Source: a virus. Taken from it: a stretch of DNA of 34,310 nucleotides. The stretch lies in IMG/VR virus record IMGVR_UViG_3300033892_000029; one strand, 5' to 3'. Positions 1 to 34,310 of the stretch are shown here, in pieces. The notes beneath the pieces were generated by a model. The model saw nothing but the letters and a program-made list of their open reading frames with translations. It was not told the DNA's origin and did no database searches. The stretch's first letter is position 1. Each line of letters opens with the position of its first letter. The position numbers were made by a program, and so were the translations under genes.

Positions 1-127
1 TCGACATTTTCCGCTCGGATGACTTCGCGAGGGTCAAGATGCTCACGATCTTCAATCCAGTGCGCCGGCACGCGCACGCCATGCCAGTGGTAAAGCGACC
101 AACCGTCGCGCCAGCGATGCGAGGGTC
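1..127. repeat. Terminal direct repeat, left copy (identical to 34184-34310); most likely the overlap left by circular assembly
   Basis: Read directly: bases 1-127 (tcgacattttccgctcgg...ccagcgatgcgagggtc) recur exactly as the last 127 bases. A minus-strand reading frame runs straight through the repeat. Confidence 0.95.
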
Positions 128-1316
128 CCGCTTCACTGTGAGGGCGGTTTTGCTCGTCCACTTTCAGGATCTCTGGGAAATCGCACACCATGCAGAATTC
201 CTCGTGCGTCCACCGGAATCCTCCGTGGATGGCAGCCTGCTCCCAGGACGCATAAGCCTCATGAGGCGGCAAGCGCAGCCCGAGAATGTCTCTGGCCGCC
301 GAAAGATAGCAATCCCAAGCGGCCCACATGTTGCCGCCTTGGCAGGGGTTCGCCCAGCGCGAAATGCACTGGCACATGAGAGGGGCGAGTTCAGGGCCGC
401 CAAGTTCAACGGCTAAAGGATAGACCCAAGCATAGGCGACCGTGGCGTCGTACGTGGCGGCGCGCGTGGCGGCGCGCGTGGCGGCGCGCGTGGCGGCGCG
501 CGTGGCGGCGATCGTGGCGGCGATCGTGGCGGCGTTCGTGGCGGCGATCGTGGCGTCGCGCGTGGCGGCGCGCGTGGCGGCGCGCGTGGCGGCGATCGTG
601 GCGGCGATCGTGGCGGCGATCGTGGCGGCGTTCGTGGCGGCGATCGTGGCGGCGTCCGTGGCGGCGTTCGTGGCGGCGTCCGTGGCGTCGCGCGTGGCGG
701 CGATCGTGGCGTCGCGCGTGGCGGCGATCGTGGCGTCGCGCGTGGCGTCGCGCGTGGCGGCGATCGTGGCGGCGATCGTGGCGGCGTTCGTGTCGGCGAT
801 CGTGGCGGCGATCGTGGCGGCGATCGTGGCGGCGCGCGTGGCGGCGTCCGTGGCGGCGTCCGTGGCGTCGTACGTGGCGTCGCGCGTGGCGGCGTACGTG
901 GCGTCGTCCGTGGCGGCGTCCGTGGCGGCGTCCGTGGCGGCGGCCGTGGCGGCGGCCGTGGCGGCGGCCGTGGCGGCGGCCGTGGCGGCGTCCGTGGCGG
1001 CGGCCGTGGCGGCGTCCGTGGCGGCGCGCGAAGGGGGCGCCTGTGGGTGCTTGCGCGCATGCCAAATGGCTGCGGCAAAGCCGCCGGCTATCGCCATGAC
1101 CAAGGGACTGGGTACGATAACGACACGCGGTTCTTTCAGTTTGGCCGCGCGATACATGCCGTGGATCGCGGACGTGATCTTGTCCGGTTCGATGGGATCG
1201 GTGCGGAAGGCACGCGCCGTCCATTGTTTGACGTGCTCGGCCATCGCGGCGCGCTCGGCCTCCGTCAGGCCACCGCCGGCGAAATCGGGACGACGGATGA
1301 TCTTTTCCTGCTTCAT
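1..1316 (-). CDS. N-terminal 1316 nt of a gene that wraps across the window ends: DUF6745-like protein with an internal 49-unit X-A-A-T repeat. It continues at 34183 and stops at 33883 (538 aa on the circle).
   Basis: Absent from the ORF track because the frame runs off the left edge. Hand translation, in the frame of ORF 33883..34260, finds ATG at 1316 with AAGGGGAG at 1325-1332. The product reads MKQEKIIRRPDFAGGGLTEAERAAMAEHVKQWTARAFRTDPIEPDKITSAIHGMYRAAKLKEPRVVIVPSPLVMAIAGGFAAAIWHARKHPQAPPS-(XAAT)x49-VAYAWVYPLAVELGGPELAPLMCQCISRWANPCQGGNMWAAWDCYLSAARDILGL... There is no stop between 1316 and 1. The DUF6745 assignment is from memory of that family's pattern and is unverified. Confidence 0.8.
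   Translation of the reverse strand, partial: MKQEKIIRRPDFAGGGLTEAERAAMAEHVKQWTARAFRTDPIEPDKITSAIHGMYRAAKLKEPRVVIVPSPLVMAIAGGFAAAIWHARKHPQAPPSRAATDAATAAATDAATAAATAAATAAATAAATDAATDAATDDATYAATRDATYDATDAATDAATRAATIAATIAATIADTNAATIAATIAATRDATRDATIAATRDATIAATRDATDAATNAATDAATIAATNAATIAATIAATIAATRAATRAATRDATIAATNAATIAATIAATRAATRAATRAATRAATYDATVAYAWVYPLAVELGGPELAPLMCQCISRWANPCQGGNMWAAWDCYLSAARDILGLRLPPHEAYASWEQAAIHGGFRWTHEEFCMVCDFPEILKVDEQNRPHSEAGPSHRWRDGWSLYHWHGVRVPAHWIEDREHLDPREVIRAENV
442..1029. repeat. Perfect-period 12-bp tandem array, 49 units, plus-strand consensus GTGGCG(G/T)CGNNC
   Basis: Counted from the sequence and from the VAxx periodicity of plus ORF 442..1344. Variation is confined to unit position 7 (G/T) and positions 10-11 (CG, AT, TT, TC, TA, GC), with one unit reading GTGTCGGCGATC. 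All three minus frames and one plus frame stay open across the array. Confidence 0.97.
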
Positions 1317-1350
1317 GCTGGGTACTCCCCTTGGTGGTGGATAAAGGATG

Positions 1351-1629
1351 TCAGGCAATGCGCTGGACGCGAACACAGGGAGCGCCATCTTCGGCGCGCA
1401 CCATGCGCTGGACGCGGTACGTATGGCCCAGGCGCCGCGCTTGTTGGCTTGCGCGTACACGCACGGCATGATCCAGTTCGCGCGGCACATCGAAGTAATG
1501 ACCGATGTCCATGGCGCGAAACGGGTACTTCTCGCGCGGCTCTTCGGGCGGCACCGGCTTCTTGTGCAACGTGAAGAAGGGAGCGGATGCGCGAGGGCGC
1601 TTGCGGGCGTTGACAGGTATGTTTTTCAT
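1351..1629 (-). CDS. Hypothetical small protein (92 aa)
   Basis: ORF track. Protein-like composition (MKNIPVNARKRPRASAPFFTLHKKPVPPEEPREKYPFRAMDIGHYFDVPRELDHAV...). Its start overlaps the upstream stop by 4 nt (1626-1629), so it sits in a tightly coupled operon. Confidence 0.7.
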   Translation of the reverse strand: MKNIPVNARKRPRASAPFFTLHKKPVPPEEPREKYPFRAMDIGHYFDVPRELDHAVRVRASQQARRLGHTYRVQRMVRAEDGAPCVRVQRIA

Positions 1630-1895
1630 GACAATGGATGATACCTTGATACATCGGGATAGTCAAGGGTGGAACGTTCATGACGCAAGCCGTACACCCA
1701 AGGCGCGCGGCCCTTGCCACGACGCACGTACGCCACGATCTGCACCACGTGTTGCGCCAGCAGCGTCCGCAGGGCTTTTTCGATGGCGCTCTCGCTGACG
1801 CCCACGCAAAGCGCCAAATCTCTTTTTGTCATTGGCTGCAGGCGCAGGACTTGCAGCAGGCGATGGCGCGCCGGTACGGGTGAGCGCGGGTTCAT
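1626..1895 (-). CDS. Putative winged-helix DNA-binding protein (89 aa)
   Basis: Internal ATG at 1895 within ORF 1626..1976, forming an ATGA overlap with the upstream small ORF. MNPRSPVPARHRLLQVLRLQPMTKRDLALCVGVSESAIEKALRTLLAQHVVQIVAYVRRGKGRAPWVY has a MarR/ArsR-like HTH-plus-wing pattern. The function is an inference. Confidence 0.6.
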   Translation of the reverse strand: MNPRSPVPARHRLLQVLRLQPMTKRDLALCVGVSESAIEKALRTLLAQHVVQIVAYVRRGKGRAPWVYGLRHERSTLDYPDVSRYHPLS

Positions 1896-2035
1896 GGCGC
1901 CATCGACAGGGCGGCAATGGCGCAGGCCAAGCCACCGATGGCGCCGACCATGAGCCCATAACCGAAGATGGCCCACAGGTCGCTGATAGCTACAAAGACC
2001 CGGCGGTTGAGGTAGTGCGAGAGGCGGCGGTTCAT
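1892..2035 (-). CDS. Small hydrophobic protein (47 aa)
   Basis: Hand translation (below the ORF-track size cut-off): MNRRLSHYLNRRVFVAISDLWAIFGYGLMVGAIGGLACAIAALSMAP. ATGA overlaps at both ends (2032-2035 and 1892-1895). One clear hydrophobic span and G/C-rich third codon positions. Confidence 0.55.
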   Translation of the reverse strand: MNRRLSHYLNRRVFVAISDLWAIFGYGLMVGAIGGLACAIAALSMAP

Positions 2036-19136: not shown

Positions 19137-19394
19137 ATGTTCGCGTTCCTTTCACGCGGCATCGACTGGATGATGGCCGAGACGCCCAACCTGGAGCGTC
19201 TGTCCATCGCCTCCAGCGTGCCGGTGTATCTGGGGCTGGCGATCTTCCACACGCTGAAGACGCACGACTTCAATGGCGGCGACTTCGGCGCGGGCTTGGC
19301 CGCCCTGGTCGGCGGCATCTCGGGTGCGATCGGGCTCAATACGTGGGTGCGCTCGCGCCCGGGCGGCCGCGACAGGGACGGCCCGGGACCATGA
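19137..19394 (+). CDS. Membrane protein (85 aa), two hydrophobic segments; holin-class candidate
   Basis: ORF track. SVPVYLGLAIFHTL and GAGLAALVGGISGAIGL, followed by a charged C-terminus. Confidence 0.5.
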   Translation: MFAFLSRGIDWMMAETPNLERLSIASSVPVYLGLAIFHTLKTHDFNGGDFGAGLAALVGGISGAIGLNTWVRSRPGGRDRDGPGP

Positions 19395-19473
19395 TCGCTT
19401 GCCTCGCAAGCTCCCAGAGCAGCGGAGCTGCGATGATCGTTTGCTCGCAAACGCTCAGAGCAGGGGACCTGCG
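19391..19473 (+). repeat. Tandem duplication (42 + 41 nt, about 83% identical) of a unit starting ATGATCG; the third ATGATCG at 19474 starts the next gene
   Basis: Unit 1 is ATGATCGCTTGCCTCGCAAGCTCCCAGAGCAGCGGAGCTGCG. Unit 2 is ATGATCGTTTGCTCGCAAACGCTCAGAGCAGGGGACCTGCG. Each contains a short hairpin (GCTTGC-CTC-GCAAGC and GTTTGC-TC-GCAAAC). Confidence 0.8.
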
Positions 19474-19860
19474 ATGATCGCCCGGATCACCGGTCTGGCC
19501 TGCGCCCTGTACCGTCAGCGGATCAAGGCGCTGGCGACGGTGGCCTGTCTGCGCCTGCCCTACCGGTATGACCCGGAAGCGGTGTACCGGGACTGTCTCG
19601 CTGGCGTGCAGGAGCTGTGGACGGACGGGGTGACCTATTGCATCGTGGAAACGCTGGAGCGCACGGATGGGCGCTTCCTGTGGCTGGCCTTTGCCGCCGG
19701 TCGCCTGCGTGAGGCGCTGGCCTGCTATACGCAGGTGGAGGAGGCCGCGCGCGCCTTGGGGTATGATGCGATTGCATTTACCGGGCGCCGGGGCTGGTCG
19801 CAGGTGCTGCCGGGGTTCGTGCGCCATGACGATGACGGTTGGATCAAGAGGCTACACTGA
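19474..19860 (+). CDS. Hypothetical protein (128 aa)
   Basis: ATG at 19474 in the frame of ORF 19273..19860. MIARITGLACALYRQRIKALATVACLRLPYRYDPEAVYRDCLAGVQELWTDGVTYCIVETLERTDGRFLWLAFAAGR... Confidence 0.6.
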   Translation: MIARITGLACALYRQRIKALATVACLRLPYRYDPEAVYRDCLAGVQELWTDGVTYCIVETLERTDGRFLWLAFAAGRLREALACYTQVEEAARALGYDAIAFTGRRGWSQVLPGFVRHDDDGWIKRLH

Positions 19861-20417: not shown

Positions 20418-21014
20418 ATGACCACGACCACTACCACGACGCCCTTGGTTGCGGCCACGCCGACCGCCACACCGACGCCGACGCCGACGCCGACCTATCA
20501 GCCGGAGACCGCCACGCCCATCACCACGCGGGCGACCTCGACCGGGCCGATGCCGTCCAAGCAGGAAACGCTGCTGAACCAGATCGCCGGGCTGGCCTTG
20601 TCCTATAGCCAAGGCGTGGCGCCCGGACAGGTCAACGCCCAGCAGCAGCAGGTGTTGAGCGCGTGGCGCAACAATGCCGATTCCGACTACAGCCAGTTCA
20701 TGGCTAACCAGGGGCTGTCGATGGTGTCTTCCAACCCGGGCGTGCTGTTCAACGAGGAACTGGCCACGGCCCAGTCGCAGTGGTCGATGCAGGATGCGCA
20801 GGGCGCCCTGTCGATGCTGGGGCTGTCGGCCAAGGACTGGGACGAATACCAGAAGCTGAAGGAAGAAGACGAGCAGCGTCACGACAACTTCCTGTTCGGC
20901 GCGGTCGAGACCGTGGCGGGCGCGGCACTGACCTTCTTCTCCGCCGGCACCCTGAGTGCCGCGGGCGTGCCCCTGATGGCGCAGGGCGTCGGCGCGATGG
21001 CCGGCAATTCCTGA
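20418..21014 (+). CDS. Internal virion-type protein candidate (198 aa) with a Thr/Pro-rich N-terminus and hydrophobic C-terminus
   Basis: ORF track. MTTTTTTTPLVAATPTATPTPTPTPTYQPE... at the start and ...FGAVETVAGAALTFFSAGTLSAAGVPLMAQGVGAMAG at the end. Confidence 0.6.
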   Translation: MTTTTTTTPLVAATPTATPTPTPTPTYQPETATPITTRATSTGPMPSKQETLLNQIAGLALSYSQGVAPGQVNAQQQQVLSAWRNNADSDYSQFMANQGLSMVSSNPGVLFNEELATAQSQWSMQDAQGALSMLGLSAKDWDEYQKLKEEDEQRHDNFLFGAVETVAGAALTFFSAGTLSAAGVPLMAQGVGAMAGNS

Positions 21015-21018
21015 GGAT

Positions 21019-22242
21019 ATGACGATGGCAACCGCAACGGCTTCCGCACCGACCCCGACCCCGACCCCGACTCCCGCTCCGGCACCGGCCCCTACTCCTG
21101 CTCCGGCGATGCCGCAGAGTATGGACGGCATGAGCCAGGTGGCCAGTGCCTTGCCCAAGGGCGATCCGGGTCAGGCGTTGGCGCAAGCGGAAGTAGCACA
21201 GGGCACGCAGCTCGACCAGCGCATGGGCGAGGACGATGCCGAGCTGGCGCATCTGGATCAGGCGCAGCAGGCCAATTGGCAGATGATGCAGCGCCAGCGG
21301 CTGGTGACGGTGAACCAGGCGCAGATCCTGCGCAAGGTGCTGCCGGTGATCGGCATCTTCACCCTGATCGCCGGCAAGGCCGGTGGCATGGACAGCGCGC
21401 TGGCTGCGCTGGGCGGCGGCATGGCCGGCCTGACCAAGGGCCTGGACCAGAAGATGCAGGATGCGTGGAAGCAGTACACCGCCAGCTACAACCAGATGAT
21501 GGCGCGAGTGAAGGAGACCCAGGCGCAGATCAAGGCTGTCATCGACGACCGCGACAAGACGCAGGCGCAGAAGACCGACCTGTACAAGGCGCTGGGTTCG
21601 CAGGTGGCATCCTACCGGCTGGCGCTGAGCAAGGCGCAGAGCGATGCTTCGCGCATGCAGGCGGCCCAGCTGCGCGCCTCCACGGAAGCGGCCGACACCG
21701 CCGCGCACGACGCGACCGCCTTGGCGGTGGCGAAGACGCATGCCGACGTGGAACGGCAGGCGCGTATCGTCGCACAGCAGAAGCAGCTGGCCGACGTGGC
21801 GCTGAAGCCGCCCACCGTGAACGACATGCAGACCGCGCTGGGCGCGCTGTTCGGGGCGCCCGATGCCAAGGCGGTCAAAGCCGCGGCGGCGGCATCGGCC
21901 GATCCGCTGACCGGCAGCGGCAAGGCCGATCCCTTCGCCGGCTATGATGTGATGCAGCAGGCCGAGGCGCGGCAGTTGCTGTCGCAGACCAACGTCTACA
22001 TCGCCCAGCATCCGAACGTGCCGCGTTTCACGGCCATGCAGCGCGTGCAGGCGGGACTGTTTCAGCAGGGCTTGAGCAATGTGCCCGGCTTGCGTCTGCC
22101 GACATCGCAGGGGCGCGCCGCGCCGTCGGGCAAGACCGTGAGCATGGACGCGGTGCGCGCCTACATGGCCAGCCATCAGGGCTACACCCAGCAGCAGGTG
22201 ATCGACACGCTGAAGGCGCAGGGGTATGTCGTCCAACCCTGA
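21019..22242 (+). CDS. Internal virion-type protein candidate (407 aa), Thr/Pro/Ala-rich N-terminus, one hydrophobic segment, long helical region
   Basis: ORF track. MTMATATASAPTPTPTPTPAPAPAPTPAPAMPQ..., then VLPVIGIFTLIAGKAGG, then a Gln/Ala/Lys-rich helix. Confidence 0.65.
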   Translation: MTMATATASAPTPTPTPTPAPAPAPTPAPAMPQSMDGMSQVASALPKGDPGQALAQAEVAQGTQLDQRMGEDDAELAHLDQAQQANWQMMQRQRLVTVNQAQILRKVLPVIGIFTLIAGKAGGMDSALAALGGGMAGLTKGLDQKMQDAWKQYTASYNQMMARVKETQAQIKAVIDDRDKTQAQKTDLYKALGSQVASYRLALSKAQSDASRMQAAQLRASTEAADTAAHDATALAVAKTHADVERQARIVAQQKQLADVALKPPTVNDMQTALGALFGAPDAKAVKAAAAASADPLTGSGKADPFAGYDVMQQAEARQLLSQTNVYIAQHPNVPRFTAMQRVQAGLFQQGLSNVPGLRLPTSQGRAAPSGKTVSMDAVRAYMASHQGYTQQQVIDTLKAQGYVVQP

Positions 22243-25200
22243 GGACATCATCGCGCAGGCCATGGCGAACGGTCCGTCCGGCGCACCGGATATTGGCGCC
22301 ATCATGGCGAAGGCCGGTGTAGAGCCGGCGCATCCCTATACGGACGCGCAAGTAGCCTTCCCGATGCCCAAGCCCGATCCGATGGCGGCGGCCATCGGTG
22401 GCGTCCTGCGCGATGAGGCTATGCATCCCAGCGCCCAATCGGTCAAGGACGACATCGACAATCGCATTGCCGAGGAGCGCGACTACCTGACCGTGGGCGG
22501 GTTCACCGGCGCCGCGCGGGCGATGGGCCGATTCGTGACCAACTACGGTCGGACCGTGGCGGCCGCCGAGAAAGACGTCTTCTCGCACCAGACGCTTGAG
22601 GGCGAGTCCTTCCTGCAAAGTCCCGTCAAGAGCGTGACGCAGGTGGCGGGCCAGGTGCCGCAGTTCGTGGCTTCCGTGGCCGGGACCATCGCGGGCGTGG
22701 CGGATACGCGCCTGTACAATCCCCAGACCGGGGCGCGGATCGAATCGGATTTCGACCAGGCGCTGCCCGCCCTGACCCATGGCTACATCGCCGAGGGGCA
22801 ACCCAGCACGGCGCTGGGGCGCGAGGTCAATGCGGCGGTGGGTTTCCTGTTCGCGCCCGTCACGTCGATTGGCCCTGCCTTTGCCACGACGCAGCACGAG
22901 ATCACCGGTACGACGTCGCCCTACCTGCACTATGTCTCCGAAGGCCTGTCGGATGTTGCCGGCATCGCGGCGGGGGCTGGGCTTGGCCAGGCGGCGGCCG
23001 GGTTGCGCGGCCGGCCGGCCGCGGCGGCGGAAGCGCCTGCGGCCGCGCCAGCACCGCCGCCCACCGAATCAGCCGCCGCTGCGCCGCCTCCCGAGCCCGA
23101 TCTTCAGGCGGCACGCGAAGCGATGGGCACCGCGCTCGCCAATCACCGCGGCGCGCAGGCCGCCTATCGTGAGGCGCTCAAGACTTCCGCCACCCGCGGC
23201 AGCGCGGCCGTCCAGGAGGCGCAAGCCGCCCGCCAGCAGGCCGCCCAGCGCGCCCAGCCCTCGGCCGTGCGGCGCGAGCTGGAGGACGAATACCGGGCCA
23301 TGGATGTCCGCGCGGCCGGTCCGCGCGCGGCGGACGATCCCACGCTGGTCCGCCAGCGCCGCAAGCTGGTGGCCCGCGACCTGGCCGCCCGGCAGGCGCT
23401 GCGCAGCCAGGAAGCGGCCGAGGCCGCCCGGCTGCACGACAAGCTGGCGCGCCAGCATGTCACGCGCTTGAACAAGCAGGCGGCGGCCTTTGAGGAAGCC
23501 GTCAAGGCCGCGCCCCACGATGCGCTGGCCGGCCTGCCGCCGCATATCCGCACCCCGCTCGAACGTGCCCTGACCGAGGCCCAGCAGCGCTACCTGCGCG
23601 CCCTGCAGACCACGCAGGCGCCCCCGGAAGGCTATGCGCATTCGCTGGAGGTGCGTGAGCTGGACGAAGCCAGTCTGTCGCCGGAGGATCGCGCGCTGGT
23701 ACAGGGCGTGCGCGAGCGCGCGGCGCAGGCGCTGGAGCGACGCCGGGCCGGCGCCGCGGCCGATGTGCAACGCATGCTCACCTCGCGCAAACTGGGTGAG
23801 CAGGCCGCCGCGGAACGCGGTCTGCGCCAGCATATCGCCACCGTGCTGGGACCCGAGCTGGCGCAGCGCGTCAGGTTCGTGAAAGATAGCTCCGGCCTGC
23901 CGGGTCAGGCGGGCGTGGTCGGAGAGGCCATCGATCCGCGTCTGCGCGTGGCGGGCTTGCATACCGGCGAAGGCCATGCCTATGTGGTCACCGATGCCGT
24001 ACCGACGCCCGAACGCGCCGTCTGGACTGCCATCCATGAGGTGGCCGGCCATGGCGGCATGGCGGCGCTGGTGGACCGTTTTGGCCATCTGGCCAGCGAC
24101 GGCGAGAACATTCGATCCCTCTACACCCGCGCTCGCACCGCGCTCCTGACCAATCCCACGGTCAAGGCACTGGCCGATCGCATTGCCGCGGAGCGCAAGT
24201 CCACCGACCTGCCGCGCATGGCCGAGGAAGCGGCGGCCGAACTGCAGGCCGCGCGCCTGACCGGCGACTGGCAGACGATCGCGCGCCGCTACGGCATCGA
24301 AGCCTCCGAGGCGCTGAAGACCGGCGTGGAGCAGGTGCTCTCGCCGTGGCGGCGCGCGCTCAAGCGCATCATGACCGCCATCGGCGAGCACGTACTGGGC
24401 CGTACGCCGATGACGCCGTTCGAGCGGGCGATGAAGGGCGACGCGGTGTTCTCCGATGCGGACGTGAATCACCTGCTGCAGCAGATGCATGAGCACGCGC
24501 GGCGCGGCGCGGGGGCGCCCGAAGCCATGGAAAGCCGGGTGCCGTCGGTTCCCCCGTCGCCCTTCACGCCGGAGGAACAGGCGCAGCTCGACGCGGCCGC
24601 CCGCAGTCTGGGCTTCTCCGATCGCCTGAACACGCGGCTGGCCGGCGAACAGACTGCGGCGAAGGAGTCGCACGCATTCGATGAGGCGCAGCAGGCGGCC
24701 GCGCGCATCGAGCGGGCGGCGGCGGCGGCCTTCGGGCCGGAGGATGCGGTCACCGTGGCGCACGTGGCCGAGGAAGGGCGCGGGCCGGCCTATGCGGCGG
24801 CGGCGCAGCCGTTCCGGGTGGATGCCCAGGGCGATATCGATTTCGCCGATCTGGACACGCTCAACGAGGAAATCCCGGTTGGCGGCCGACGCGGCGCCCG
24901 GGCGGCCTTCGAGGGCTGGTTCCCCACGCGCGAGCCGGGCCTGACGGAAGCCGGCGTGCGCGCCCTGCAGAACCTGTCCGATGCCGAGGGCACGGTGGCG
25001 AAGGGCGTGGCCGCCATGAAGAAGCTCTGGCAGGGGATGCAGACGATGTTCCCCGACATCACCAAGCCGGAGATTGCCAAGGCGGCGGCGGCGATGCTCG
25101 AGCGCGTCTCCTCGGCGCGCGCGGAGGCGGCGCGCTACAGTCGCAACATGCGCAGCTTCGCGCGCCTGATTGCCAAGCTGACGCCAGAGCAGCAGGCGGC

Positions 25201-27595
25201 GGTGTACCGCTTGGCCGAGCAGGGAACCACGCGCGATGCGGTGCGTGGGGTGGACGTGCCCCTGCCGGAGAACGTGGACTGGCAAGGCTGGTTCCGCTAC
25301 ATCCGCCACGTGCACGACCGTGCCTTCGAGGCGATCAACCGGGCGCGTGGTGCGCCGGTGGTGCGCTACCGCGAGAACCACTTCGCCCGCTTTGTGAAAG
25401 CGCCGGACGGCACCGTGCACGACTCGGCTATGGCGAGTGTAGCCAGCGAGGCCTTCGAGCACGCGCGCCAGTTCCCGACCATGGACAGTATCCTGAACCA
25501 GCCGGCCGACGCGCCGCGCTGGAAGCCGTACTCGCTCAATCTCGCCATGAATGAGATTCGTTGGGCGCAGTCGGTGCAGCGTTACGTCGCGCGCTGGGAA
25601 ACCACCCGCACGCTGGCGCGCATGGGGGCGATCCGCACGGTGCCGGAAGGCTACGTGCCCACGCCCGATGAGGTGAAGTTCCTGGCGCCCGACCGGCACA
25701 GCTGGCTGAGCGGTCCGCGCACCTTGGTCGCGGCCATGCACAACGGCCCCTTCGCCGAGCCACTGATGGGCCGATACGCCCGGCTGGCCTCCGCCGGCAT
25801 GGTGCTGCGGCCGGTGTGGAACAGCGTCACACAATCTGCGCTGGCGCTGTCGCTCTACCATCCCTTCGCCATCACTTTCTACTCGGCGCCCGTGCACGCG
25901 CTCACCGAGTCGCTGGCGCGGGTCAGCGATCCGTGGTCCGTACAAGGCGTGGTGGACATCGCCAAGGCGTTTGCCAAGGCGCTTCCCGGGGCGCCCGGGC
26001 GCTCCTTCGTGGCCGGCGAACACGTGCCGGCGCACGAGGCGCTGGCGCTCCTGGCCGGCAAGAAGGGCGGCCTCACCGTGGACAAGGCGACCGGCAAGGT
26101 CATGATGCCCGACGAGGACCCGGCTGAGGTGGCGCTGGACGTGATGCGCGGCCTGCGGCCGGTGTCCGATGCCGCGCCGGCCCACGTCGAGCTGATGCGT
26201 CGGGTGGCGATCGGCGGCATGCATGTGTGGGGCAAGGGCGAATTCCGCAACGAGGCGATGGACCATTTCCGCGACGCCATCGACCAGCACAAGCCGCTGG
26301 CGGCGACCGGCTGGGCCTTGCCGGCGTTCCTGCGCTCGCTCGGTACGCCGATCATGGACGGCTTCATCCCGTGGATGAAGGTGCGTGCCTACCTCGCCGA
26401 CACCGAGGGCTGGGCCCGCGCCAACCCGGGGCAGATCGGCAGCGAGGCCGAGCGCCTGGCCTTCCAGCGCTACGCCCGGGAGATCGACCAGCGCTTCGGC
26501 GAGATGGCGACCAGCAACCTGTTCTGGAACCGCTGGATCACCGGTTTGCTGCATGGCTCGATGCTGTCCTTCGGCTGGAATTACGGCCTCGTGAGCCAGA
26601 TGCTGGGCGGCGGCAAGGACGTGGCGCAGCGCGCGACACGCCTGATCCAGGGGCGTGAGCTCGATACGCTGCGCACCCGCCTGCCCTACGCCACGCTCTA
26701 CACCGCCTACGGGCTGGGGCTGGGCTTCCTGATGACGCGCTTCATCGGCAACCAGCCGATCCAGTCGCTCAAGGACGGCGTGTATCCGGTGATGCGCATG
26801 GAGCCGGACGGCACCGCCTACCGGGTGAAGATGCCCGGCTGGTTGCAGGACGTCGGCGCGACCTACTACCACGTGCAGGTGGAAGGCATGACCGCGGGGC
26901 TGGCCGACGAAGCGGCCAACAAAGGCGCGCCGATGCTGTCGTTGCTGCATCAGCTCTGGTCCAACCAGAACTACTATGGCCAGCAGATCCGCGATCCAAT
27001 GGACCCGTGGACCATGCAGCTGGCCGAGTCGGCGCATGCCGCCTTTTCCGCCACCGTGCCGTTCACGCTGGAGAATTTCCTGCAACAGCAGCACGACCCG
27101 CAGGGACCGGGCACGCTGGTCGATTTGACCACCAACGCGCTGGGCATCACCCAGGCCGCCAGCTACACGCGCGAGCCGATCCCGGTGCAGAAGATCTTCT
27201 GGCTCGAGCACTCGCAGGGCCTCTCGGGCGTGACGCCCTATGCCAGCGCCGTGCGGGACGACGGCCTGCGAGCCTATCACTTGCGCGAGCTCTACAGCCA
27301 GGGACGCCAGAGCGGCGACTACACGGCGTTCCTGAAGGCGATGCGCGAGGTGCAGGCGCAGTACGGTCTGACGCGGCGCCAAGCGCTCTATGAGGTCGAG
27401 AAGCTCAAGGCTCCGACCGGTGCCTTCACATTGCGCGAGCTGCCGCTCTCGGACCAGCGCGCCGTCTGGAACGACATGAGGGACGATCCGGCCTTGCTGC
27501 GGAAATACTATCCGTACTTCAACCAGCAGTTCAGGAATCAACAGCTGCGGGACGATCCGGCGTTGCTGGAGGCACTGCGCAACGCCCCTCCCTGA
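22226..27595 (+). CDS. Giant virion-associated protein (1789 aa); ejection/internal-core or polyvalent-type protein
   Basis: ORF track. A single uninterrupted frame with consistent coding composition. It has an Ala/Pro linker (AAAEAPAAAPAPPPTESAAAAPPPEP), an Ala/Arg/Gln-rich helical region, AIHEVAGHGG at 24029-24058 and a large Trp/Tyr-rich C-terminal half. The function is inferred from size and position. Confidence 0.85.
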   Translation: MSSNPEDIIAQAMANGPSGAPDIGAIMAKAGVEPAHPYTDAQVAFPMPKPDPMAAAIGGVLRDEAMHPSAQSVKDDIDNRIAEERDYLTVGGFTGAARAMGRFVTNYGRTVAAAEKDVFSHQTLEGESFLQSPVKSVTQVAGQVPQFVASVAGTIAGVADTRLYNPQTGARIESDFDQALPALTHGYIAEGQPSTALGREVNAAVGFLFAPVTSIGPAFATTQHEITGTTSPYLHYVSEGLSDVAGIAAGAGLGQAAAGLRGRPAAAAEAPAAAPAPPPTESAAAAPPPEPDLQAAREAMGTALANHRGAQAAYREALKTSATRGSAAVQEAQAARQQAAQRAQPSAVRRELEDEYRAMDVRAAGPRAADDPTLVRQRRKLVARDLAARQALRSQEAAEAARLHDKLARQHVTRLNKQAAAFEEAVKAAPHDALAGLPPHIRTPLERALTEAQQRYLRALQTTQAPPEGYAHSLEVRELDEASLSPEDRALVQGVRERAAQALERRRAGAAADVQRMLTSRKLGEQAAAERGLRQHIATVLGPELAQRVRFVKDSSGLPGQAGVVGEAIDPRLRVAGLHTGEGHAYVVTDAVPTPERAVWTAIHEVAGHGGMAALVDRFGHLASDGENIRSLYTRARTALLTNPTVKALADRIAAERKSTDLPRMAEEAAAELQAARLTGDWQTIARRYGIEASEALKTGVEQVLSPWRRALKRIMTAIGEHVLGRTPMTPFERAMKGDAVFSDADVNHLLQQMHEHARRGAGAPEAMESRVPSVPPSPFTPEEQAQLDAAARSLGFSDRLNTRLAGEQTAAKESHAFDEAQQAAARIERAAAAAFGPEDAVTVAHVAEEGRGPAYAAAAQPFRVDAQGDIDFADLDTLNEEIPVGGRRGARAAFEGWFPTREPGLTEAGVRALQNLSDAEGTVAKGVAAMKKLWQGMQTMFPDITKPEIAKAAAAMLERVSSARAEAARYSRNMRSFARLIAKLTPEQQAAVYRLAEQGTTRDAVRGVDVPLPENVDWQGWFRYIRHVHDRAFEAINRARGAPVVRYRENHFARFVKAPDGTVHDSAMASVASEAFEHARQFPTMDSILNQPADAPRWKPYSLNLAMNEIRWAQSVQRYVARWETTRTLARMGAIRTVPEGYVPTPDEVKFLAPDRHSWLSGPRTLVAAMHNGPFAEPLMGRYARLASAGMVLRPVWNSVTQSALALSLYHPFAITFYSAPVHALTESLARVSDPWSVQGVVDIAKAFAKALPGAPGRSFVAGEHVPAHEALALLAGKKGGLTVDKATGKVMMPDEDPAEVALDVMRGLRPVSDAAPAHVELMRRVAIGGMHVWGKGEFRNEAMDHFRDAIDQHKPLAATGWALPAFLRSLGTPIMDGFIPWMKVRAYLADTEGWARANPGQIGSEAERLAFQRYAREIDQRFGEMATSNLFWNRWITGLLHGSMLSFGWNYGLVSQMLGGGKDVAQRATRLIQGRELDTLRTRLPYATLYTAYGLGLGFLMTRFIGNQPIQSLKDGVYPVMRMEPDGTAYRVKMPGWLQDVGATYYHVQVEGMTAGLADEAANKGAPMLSLLHQLWSNQNYYGQQIRDPMDPWTMQLAESAHAAFSATVPFTLENFLQQQHDPQGPGTLVDLTTNALGITQAASYTREPIPVQKIFWLEHSQGLSGVTPYASAVRDDGLRAYHLRELYSQGRQSGDYTAFLKAMREVQAQYGLTRRQALYEVEKLKAPTGAFTLRELPLSDQRAVWNDMRDDPALLRKYYPYFNQQFRNQQLRDDPALLEALRNAPP

Positions 27596-33485: not shown

Positions 33486-33836
33486 TCAGTCCTGCACCAG
33501 GCGCGCTTGCTCCAGGAACGGGTTGTACTCGCGGCTGATGCGGAACTCGTAGATACCCGCCGGCAACTCAAAATGCTCGTGCGGTACGGGCGCATCCTGC
33601 TCCAGCAGGCAGTCCGCCGACAGGCACGCATAGATGATGCGCATGCCATCGGGCACCGCATCCGTGCGCTCCATGACCTCGGCGCCCTCGCCCGCAAGCA
33701 CATGGTGATGGCCGCTTTCGGAGTGGCTGATGATGGCGCCGTGCGCATTGCGCTCGACCGGTTTGTGCTGCATGGCGGGCAGCGTATCAATGCGGATGAT
33801 GGTGATTTCGCCTTGGGCTCCGACAATCTGTTTCAT
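33486..33836 (-). CDS. Hypothetical beta-rich protein (116 aa)
   Basis: ATG at 33836 with AGGAGA upstream, in the frame of ORF 33486..34016. MKQIVGAQGEITIIRIDTLPAMQHKPVERNAHGAIISHSESGHHHVLAGEGAEVMERTD... Confidence 0.65.
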   Translation of the reverse strand: MKQIVGAQGEITIIRIDTLPAMQHKPVERNAHGAIISHSESGHHHVLAGEGAEVMERTDAVPDGMRIIYACLSADCLLEQDAPVPHEHFELPAGIYEFRISREYNPFLEQARLVQD

Positions 33837-33882: not shown

Positions 33883-34310
33883 TTAGGTACGGCGCGGCGG
33901 ATGGATGTATTCGGCCTGCGGATCGCCGATGCGCCACGCCTGCGCGGCGAGGGCCGTGTCGATGGGAAGGTTGTCGATATCGGAAACGCGCGGCACCCCT
34001 TCCACGATCGTGCCATTGCGCGGGCATTCGGCTTTAAGGAAGCGGCCCGGTTCAGCCAATCCCGGGAGATCCAGCTCGATGAGTTGGCCGATGGTCGGCG
34101 AGCCGCTATCGTGGATCACGCGCGCTTTGAGCACTTGCAACATCTTCGGCCACCCGACAATAGCAGCCCCGGCGGCGCGCTGTTCGACATTTTCCGCTCG
34201 GATGACTTCGCGAGGGTCAAGATGCTCACGATCTTCAATCCAGTGCGCCGGCACGCGCACGCCATGCCAGTGGTAAAGCGACCAACCGTCGCGCCAGCGA
34301 TGCGAGGGTC
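33883..34310 (-). CDS. C-terminal part of the wrap-around DUF6745-like gene (see 1..1316); 34184-34310 duplicates 1-127
   Basis: ORF 33883..34260 is listed with an internal GTG, but the frame stays open to the window end and continues at base 128 on the circle. ...SHRWRDGWSLYHWHGVRVPAHWIEDREHLDPREVIRAENVEQRAAGAAIVGWPKMLQVLKARVIHDSGSPTIGQLIELDLPG... Confidence 0.8.
   Translation of the reverse strand, partial: PSHRWRDGWSLYHWHGVRVPAHWIEDREHLDPREVIRAENVEQRAAGAAIVGWPKMLQVLKARVIHDSGSPTIGQLIELDLPGLAEPGRFLKAECPRNGTIVEGVPRVSDIDNLPIDTALAAQAWRIGDPQAEYIHPPRRT
34184..34310. repeat. Terminal direct repeat, right copy (identical to 1-127)
   Basis: Exact 127-nt identity read by eye. Confidence 0.95.

Follow-up and report, generated by a model that had tools for sequence, protein, structure and literature searches.

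A phage gene divided by the ends of a circular assembly encodes a DUF6745 protein with a tetrapeptide array of variable length

Introduction

The IMG/VR virus record IMGVR_UViG_3300033892_000029 is a stretch of 34,310 nucleotides (nt), referred to here as the window, with an array of tandem 12-bp units near its left end. This locus raises two questions: which of the reading frames that cross the array is a gene, and what might a protein built around such an array do? An earlier note, made from the sequence alone, held that the array lies inside a 538-amino-acid (aa) gene of the DUF6745 family that crosses the circular junction of the assembly. Here, we establish this gene model and the family membership of the product, the anatomy of the array, its polymorphism at the level of whole units, the constraint on it at the protein level, and its association with a downstream gene in a two-gene module. 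Of the anatomy of gene, array and module we are highly confident. The function of the protein is approached by analogy with gp54 of mycobacteriophage Tweety and from the accessory, fast-evolving character of the module. On these grounds we suggest, with a confidence slightly short of even, that the protein may be a rapidly retunable host-interaction or counter-defence factor encoded in the non-structural arm of the phage.

Results and Discussion

The gene crosses the circular junction

Nucleotides 1..127 of the window are an exact copy of 34184..34310, and the window is therefore a closed circle with a unit of 34,183 bp. The largest k-mer of de Bruijn assemblers is typically 127, and we infer that the duplication is an overlap left by assembly and not a biological terminal repeat. 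On the minus strand of this circle, one frame runs from an ATG at 1316..1314 through the array and across the junction to a stop codon at 33885..33883. In the list of open reading frames (ORFs), this coding sequence (CDS) appears merely as a 125-aa fragment at 33883..34260 (-), whose frame is open to the end of the window and resumes at base 128. The full frame is hidden because the circular assembly was linearised inside the gene, and it is unlisted because the ORF program drops ORFs that run off an end. Rotated translation recovers the joined ORF of 538 aa, as the earlier note had predicted, and the N-terminal peptide quoted there is present in it. The Shine-Dalgarno sequence proposed for the ATG at 1316 is also found (AAGGGGAG at 1332..1325), and the starts of homologues coincide with this ATG (MKK...IRRPDFAGGGIT). 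Three further long ORFs listed in this region, 406..1224(-), 413..1078(-) and 442..1344(+), read as RRHx, PPRx and VAAx repeats in translation and are, as had been surmised, the array's other open frames. We considered ORF 442..1344 on the plus strand as a real gene and rejected it, since its high G+C content at third codon positions (GC3) stems from the repeat and homology is seen only in the minus-strand frame. Within the 538-aa gene, the N-terminal part has a GC3 of 0.74, the array one of 0.99 and the C-terminal part one of 0.70, with values of 0.67-0.93 in the remaining minus-strand genes.

Comparison with other sequences supports the gene model. With the repeat removed, the protein matches 1,312 database proteins, many of which have lengths of 340-390 aa and span 99-100% of the query; hence, the two terminal parts occur elsewhere as a single continuous polypeptide. 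The exact sequence of the 116-aa protein encoded downstream (the partner, discussed below) is recorded on 42 contigs, which opened other assemblies of the same phage to examination. An independent 34,281-bp assembly of the phage, opened at another point, carries a 538-residue call at this position, followed by the identical 116-aa gene. Over 4.3 kb that take in the last 12-23 units, four contigs that start inside the array show 100% identity to the window.

One might still suspect that the gene or its array is an artefact, produced by a mis-joined circle or a collapsed or expanded repeat, given that the record is a short-read metagenome assembly and that contigs of related phages often start or end inside the array (L005, L007, L018, L022, L166, L167, L171-L174 and many more). 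The independent call and the agreement among the four assemblies argue otherwise. In addition, the longest exact repeat within the array is 62 bp, so every 127-mer of the array is unique and the assembled path is unambiguous, and gain or loss of whole units always preserves the frame. An artefact is, in our estimation, so improbable as to be nearly excluded. The contig breaks could come from population heterogeneity or from assembler difficulty. Databases hold many truncated versions of 209-340 aa (e.g. P0055, P0070), and a collection of ~15 billion proteins has no copy of the exact 538-aa sequence, which fits a gene commonly truncated by assembly. The array is a systematic assembly breakpoint, and this explains why contigs end in the gene and why the gene is missed or truncated in annotation.

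A DUF6745 domain with a conserved companion

The C-terminal domain matches the Pfam model DUF6745 (PF20530) over aa 354-466 with 51.3 bits, above the gathering cut-off of 27 (E=1.2e-13), and the match covers model positions 28-140 of 206. The earlier note had assigned both flanking domains to DUF6745, which the hidden Markov model search bears out for the C-terminal domain only. The N-terminal domain lies outside the Pfam model and is better described as a conserved companion: it has conserved alignment columns and accompanies the C-terminal domain throughout the family, and it has no Pfam, PHROG or NCBIfam model of its own. A precomputed PF20530 assignment is present on all 120 homologues among the matches listed, and the PHROGs match is to an unnamed family. 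The Pfam entry describes DUF6745 as a domain of unknown function, and nothing more. This family is large, with 1,312 clusters at 90% identity for the full protein and 8,646 at 50% identity for the C-terminal domain, and it is represented in phages as well as prophages of Alpha-, Beta- and Gammaproteobacteria, Actinobacteria and others. When the C-terminal domain was compared with GenBank phages by tblastn, just seven distant matches were obtained, all annotated as 'hypothetical protein'. Within the close subfamily, H371, C375, H393, C492 and a WRDG motif of this domain are invariant.

The AlphaFold2 (AF2) model of the protein is confident for aa 1-89 and 291-538. Its top Foldseek match in BFVD is the DUF6745 protein of Microcystis phage Ma-LMM01 (E=4.9e-11, probability 1.00), a comparison of one predicted structure with another, and no other structural neighbour is significant. 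Both this protein (gp174) and gp38 of prophage prophiGD102-1 have a homologous C-terminal domain and the same layout of N-terminal domain, linker and DUF6745. We also considered aa 64-85 as a membrane anchor, and rejected this idea because the equivalent helix of distant homologues contains polar residues and AF2 places the helix in the globular N-terminal domain.

The array is constrained as protein

Tandem Repeats Finder (TRF) reports a 12-bp array at 441..1026 with 48.8 copies, which in codon register corresponds to 49 units at 438..1025. Variation is confined to unit nucleotides 2, 5, 10 and 11, all first or second codon positions; none of the 74 non-consensus bases falls at a third codon position (p ~1e-13 under uniform placement). 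The variable residue of the unit is Ile in 15 cases, Arg in 13, Asp in 9, Ala in 5, Asn in 4 and Tyr in 3. The window array is atypical in that Ile is commonest (15/49 units versus 0.9% family-wide), and an Asp at the first unit position is preceded by Arg or Tyr far more often than by Ile.

Nearly every full-length homologue has an array of the form (A-T-x-x)n at the same place, with 3 to >60 units, and up to 72-74 units were counted in the loci examined. Within an array, the Ala and Thr codons are uniform; between arrays, codons differ. Ala is encoded by GCC, GCG, GCA or GCT, Thr by ACG, ACC, ACT or ACA, and Arg at the variable site by CGC, CGT, AGA or AGG, depending on the array. This pattern implies that units are homogenised within each array and that A-T is conserved at the protein level. 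Across 1,933 units, Asp occupies the variable site in 24%, Arg in 24% and Tyr in 18%, followed by His, Leu, Ala, Ser and Trp, with Pro in 0.2%. Judging from these comparisons, the array is a family trait under protein-level selection.

Distant DUF6745 proteins have period-4 arrays with other constant motifs at the equivalent position. These include S-S-L-x in a 77-kb siphovirus, [G/D]-Q-L-[W/R/G] in ~50 units in gp38 of the Mycobacterium abscessus prophage prophiGD102-1, and x-N-L-x (A-N-L-x, E-N-L-x), xQLx, S-A-V-x and A-S-V-x elsewhere. Some of the distant arrays are long and degenerate, extending over several hundred residues. In several (L083 2386-3663, L165 1634-3079, P0159, P0168, P0178), the variable residue is mainly Trp, Arg, Gly, Asp or Glu.

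Could the repeat instead act as DNA, for example as origin iterons, as a site for packaging or as a hot spot of recombination? Every frame of either strand is open throughout the array, and phage origins are sometimes iteron arrays inside genes. However, the encoded A-T-x-x is conserved between relatives and the DNA unit is not; the N- and C-terminal domains are always kept in frame by the array; and unrelated DNA units of equal period occupy the same position in distant members. A DNA-level role is thus very improbable, and we regard it as nearly excluded.

Whole units are gained and lost

The linker had been described as hypervariable on the basis of one sequence, and it does vary, both family-wide and between phages that are otherwise nearly the same. 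A phage with 99.1% DNA identity to the window phage (L170) encodes N- and C-terminal domains that are 100% identical to those of the window, joined by 34 units rather than 49, the difference being a clean loss of units 26-40; these counts, like array lengths in general here, derive from short-read assemblies, in which many related contigs stop within the array. One chromosome holds two prophages whose arrays comprise 35 and 9 units beside flanking DNA that is 97-99.8% identical, and near-identical database proteins differ mainly in unit number. These two prophages (L085 6001-7437 and L090 6001-7113) lie ~500 kb apart in OZ244212.1, the metagenome-assembled chromosome of a member of the Azotimanducaceae, and irregular VSPT/VSPA units occur in the longer array. 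No more alleles of the window phage came from an exact-pattern scan of viral contigs, and two scans of metagenome contigs yielded no further allele, only one short contig in which the gene diverges just before the array.

The array is predicted to be helical

According to the AF2 model, the array forms helices at 97-181 and 196-287, with predicted local distance difference test (pLDDT) scores of ~80 (up to 84) near the domains. The variable residues of successive units (i and i+4) were compared with within-array shuffles, in a test whose related proteins are not independent of one another: opposite charges are enriched (z=+5.2), like charges are depleted (z=-5.6), and identical residues are depleted (z=-5.1). 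Such charge pairing fits an alpha-helix with contacts from i to i+4. We therefore have moderate support for the view that the array is probably a long alpha-helix or a helical hairpin.

It is also conceivable that function resides wholly in the two globular domains and the partner, for instance as an enzyme or regulator, and that the array is a neutral, slippage-prone spacer in a surface loop. Short or non-repetitive linkers do exist (five units in homologue P0002; no repeat in Ma-LMM01 gp174), and the invariant His, Cys and WRDG residues of the C-terminal domain could form a metal or active site. Neutral spacers are expected to drift, yet the A-T scaffold persists in arrays that differ in their synonymous codons. 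Whichever codon family is used, Asp, Arg and Tyr prevail, Pro is almost absent, and third codon positions are fixed while first and second positions vary. The charge complementarity between neighbouring variable residues, and the SSLx, xQLx, xNLx and SAVx period-4 arrays at the equivalent position in distant members, likewise argue for constraint. We consider a neutral spacer unlikely.

Several known types of repetitive or variable protein were compared with the array. A DNA mimic was rejected because net charge at the variable position is near zero, with a mean of -0.5 per array. The variable protein of a diversity-generating retroelement (DGR) was rejected as well, because all four bases occur at variable sites without adenine bias; moreover, a second copy of the array, as expected of a DGR template repeat, was not seen elsewhere in the window, and no reverse transcriptase was found among the window proteins scanned, which represent part of the ORFs. 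Pentapeptide-repeat proteins (A[D/N]LXX; Qnr, MfpA) likewise combine short tandem repeats, a core of constant small or hydrophobic residues and outward-facing positions that vary, and the distant DUF6745 arrays that read A-N-L-x or E-N-L-x recall them. The window array differs in having a period of 4 rather than 5 residues (12 bp) and in being predicted helical rather than a beta-helix, and pentapeptide Pfam models give no match to it at E<=1.

Table 1. Coordinates of the DUF6745 locus and its component features in the window
Feature	Position	Strand	Description
CDS, piece 1	1..1316	-	Codons 1 to 439 (codon 439 in part); homologue N-termini coincide
CDS, piece 2	33883..34183	-	Remainder of codon 439 to codon 538, and stop 33885..33883
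Shine-Dalgarno-like AAGGGGAG	1325..1332	-	8 nt 5' of ATG; read from sequence
N-terminal domain	1026..1316	-	aa 1-97; beta-beta-alpha-alpha-beta-alpha; AF2 pLDDT 92-97 over aa 11-90
Array	438..1025	-	49 twelve-bp units GCC GCC ACG NNC = [A/D]-A-T-x; aa 98-293
C-terminal domain, part 1	1..437	-	aa 294-439; AF2 pLDDT mostly >90
C-terminal domain, part 2	33886..34183	-	aa 439-538; Pfam and AF2
Partner gene	33486..33836	-	116 aa, all-beta; starts 46 nt after DUF6745 stop
Terminal duplication	1..127 = 34184..34310	.	Marks circular or circularly closed assembly

A partner gene and a mobile module

In 106 of 160 loci examined by tblastn, a homologue of the 116-aa partner gene lies directly downstream of the DUF6745 homologue, and among loci in which the C-terminal domain is at least 50% identical, the fraction is 94 of 103. 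The median gap between the two genes is ~35 bp. From this conserved gene order, we conclude that the DUF6745 gene and the 116-aa gene, of which the earlier note makes no mention, form a two-gene module. The partner contains invariant HSExGHHH (HSESGHHH in the window), QDA, PH and FR..RE motifs, and its invariant residues include H38, H44, H45, H86, E56, R57, D81, R99, R102 and E103. AF2 models it as an all-beta protein with a pLDDT of 81. None of its 759 homologues is named or has a Pfam domain. Neither the partner gene nor the tetrapeptide arrays and N-terminal companion domain of DUF6745 proteins are described in the literature searched.

Upstream genes of the DUF6745 homologues are not conserved between loci, and the gene pair is found in unrelated backbones: in a 34-kb phage with an SU10-type portal; in a prophage, between RecT and the integrase; and in a 77-kb siphovirus, where it adjoins an integrase. 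Prophages of Rhizobium, Mesorhizobium and Xanthobacter also have the pair. By these comparisons, the pair seems to behave like an accessory, mobile cassette. In the window phage and its relatives, the DUF6745 gene lies in the non-structural minus-strand arm, within a same-strand block that carries exonuclease and lysis genes. The gene had been described in the earlier note as an early phage gene; its place in the non-structural arm of a phage is confirmed, and 'early' remains a reading of position only.

The settings near integrases suggest another explanation, namely that the module is a weapon against other phages, or has a lysogenic-conversion or exclusion function. Phage or prophage would express it to block competitors, and its array would track the proteins of rival phages and not host defences. 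Homologues indeed occur in integrated prophages near immunity and integration genes, and in one case two copies occur within one chromosome. Fast-evolving accessory genes at such prophage positions are often exclusion or defence genes. Against this, no integrase or repressor was found in the exonuclease and lysis block in which the window phage and its relatives carry the gene, the PADLOC defence models give no match (see below), and the sole characterised analogue, gp54, is a counter-defence protein (PMC9262239). We judge an exclusion function to be improbable.

Resemblance to Tweety gp54 and a proposed role

Tweety gp54 contains 48 units of A-A-[G/W/Q]-[S/Y], each encoded by 12 bp, in which bases one to six and the two third codon positions after them are invariant (PMC2884959). 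The related proteins of phages Che8 (gp57) and PMC (gp51) have 26 and 15 units, respectively, between flanks that are >95% identical (PMC2884959). According to PMC9262239 (citing Dedrick et al. 2017), gp54 provides counter-defence against the prophage-encoded Phrann gp29/gp30 system, which resembles (p)ppGpp synthetases; mutants that escape this defence gain or lose gp54 repeats, and the change in repeats is proposed to retune the juxtaposition of the N- and C-terminal parts of gp54. The window protein has the same kind of array: an in-frame 12-bp unit with an Ala-rich constant part, a variable part and fixed third codon positions, present in dozens of copies (49 versus 48), with a copy number that changes between close relatives beside conserved unique flanks. 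Each of the two genes is located in the non-structural part of its genome. They differ in the unit itself, [A/D]-A-T-x in the window protein, and in what follows the array, ~40 residues in gp54 versus the DUF6745 domain. No partner gene is described for gp54, and its host is an actinobacterium. As far as the sequences indicate, the window protein resembles gp54 in design and is not a member of its family. The earlier note had called the gene a candidate host-takeover or anti-defence factor, and gp54, which it does not cite, gives the anti-defence idea a concrete precedent. Among the distant members, prophiGD102-1 gp38 also has a period-4 array, and Ma-LMM01 gp174 is without repeat.

A looser parallel is offered by Bbp36 of Bordetella phages BPP-1/BMP-1, in which the VR2 repeat varies from 9 to 20 copies between isolates and the gene is reported to be non-essential (PMC2884959). 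Here too, a gene outside the structural set holds an in-frame array of variable copy number, flanked by unique N- and C-terminal parts. Its unit is 24 bp, encoding the octapeptide GTATAGYR, versus 12 bp in the window gene. Homology to BPP-1 Bbp36 was considered and rejected (hhalign probability 0.1%). A literature search for phage proteins with 12-bp tandem repeats or tetrapeptide repeats gave nothing relevant.

The product comprises the 97-aa N-terminal domain, the Ala/Thr-rich tetrapeptide array and the DUF6745 C-terminal domain. On our reading, whole 12-bp units are gained or lost by slippage or unequal recombination, so that the frame is never lost and the length and surface residues of the predicted helix change quickly. 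Selection retains the A-T scaffold and favours a mixed stripe of the Asp/Arg/Tyr type at the fourth position. By analogy with gp54, the protein would act together with the downstream 116-aa protein, and its fit to a host target would be retuned through the number and order of repeats. That the specific function is counter-defence, as for gp54, is a more doubtful claim, to which we give distinctly less than an even chance.

Several points weigh against this proposal. DUF6745 and PF20530 are not mentioned in the literature searched, which offers no functional evidence for any member. No family among the 5,027 defence models of PADLOC matches the DUF6745 protein at E<=1, and no NCBIfam family matches it either. 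No PDB sequence scored below E=0.24 in a profile search, and Foldseek searches of PDB gave a best E of 2.6 for the full model and of 0.1 for the partner, the latter with weak matches to beta-rich chains (glycosidases, lipid-binding proteins). The gp54 protein matches neither DUF6745 nor any other Pfam family, and its flanks lack homology to the window protein (hhalign probability 2.3%), so the analogy is one of arrays and not of flanking domains. The linker of Ma-LMM01 gp174 is non-repetitive, which makes the array dispensable to the fold. At the centre of the modelled array, pLDDT is 38-58, and below 50 at the midpoint, where the hairpin turn may be an artefact of the model. The cautions given above, on related proteins in the charge test and on short-read array lengths, belong here as well.

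A further possibility is that the array itself is the recognition surface, a helix or hairpin that would display a stripe of Asp, Arg, Tyr, His and Trp, with shuffling of 12-bp cassettes rewriting its order and length to keep pace with host defence proteins. We think this unlikely. Were it so, phages of several bacterial phyla would share a means of diversifying binding that is based on repeats and free of reverse transcriptase, built on the DUF6745 scaffold and partner, and Tweety gp54 would be one convergent example of a much wider principle.

In the literature searched, no tetrapeptide-repeat phage protein other than gp54 has a demonstrated role, and gp54 has been regarded as a curiosity of mycobacteriophages. 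The present comparisons extend its repeat logic to a large family with non-homologous flanking domains. This family has a conserved partner gene, and the choice of residues at its variable site is strongly non-random. If the analogy with counter-defence is true, such arrays would be a widespread marker of arms-race genes, and one that is easy to recognise.

The phage genome and minor observations

The window is the genome of a ~34-kb tailed phage, encoding a large terminase, portal, major head protein, tail fibre, exonuclease and lysozyme. A 33.9-kb relative (L001) has the same layout and an SU10-type portal, and 25 kb of the window compared with GenBank phages by megablast had no match. ORF 1626..1976 (-), which lies two genes upstream of the DUF6745 gene, has weak winged-helix/helix-turn-helix matches (TrmB, MarR, ArsR-like), all of them sub-gathering, and it may encode a regulator of the gene block that contains the DUF6745 gene. 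In the structural arm, ORF 22226..27595 (+) encodes 1,789 aa with no significant Pfam domain and has a 1,802-aa counterpart in the 33.9-kb relative; it may be a large internal virion or tail protein. The adjacent ORFs 20418..21014 and 21019..22242 (+) begin with Thr/Pro-rich low-complexity sequence (TTTTTTTP..., TPTPTPTPAPAPAP...), and TRF finds short 6-bp and 24-bp repeats in this region. Finally, a 41-bp tandem repeat (2.2 copies, 84% match) lies at 19391..19481, where a small ORF ends in a stretch of the structural arm that separates called genes.

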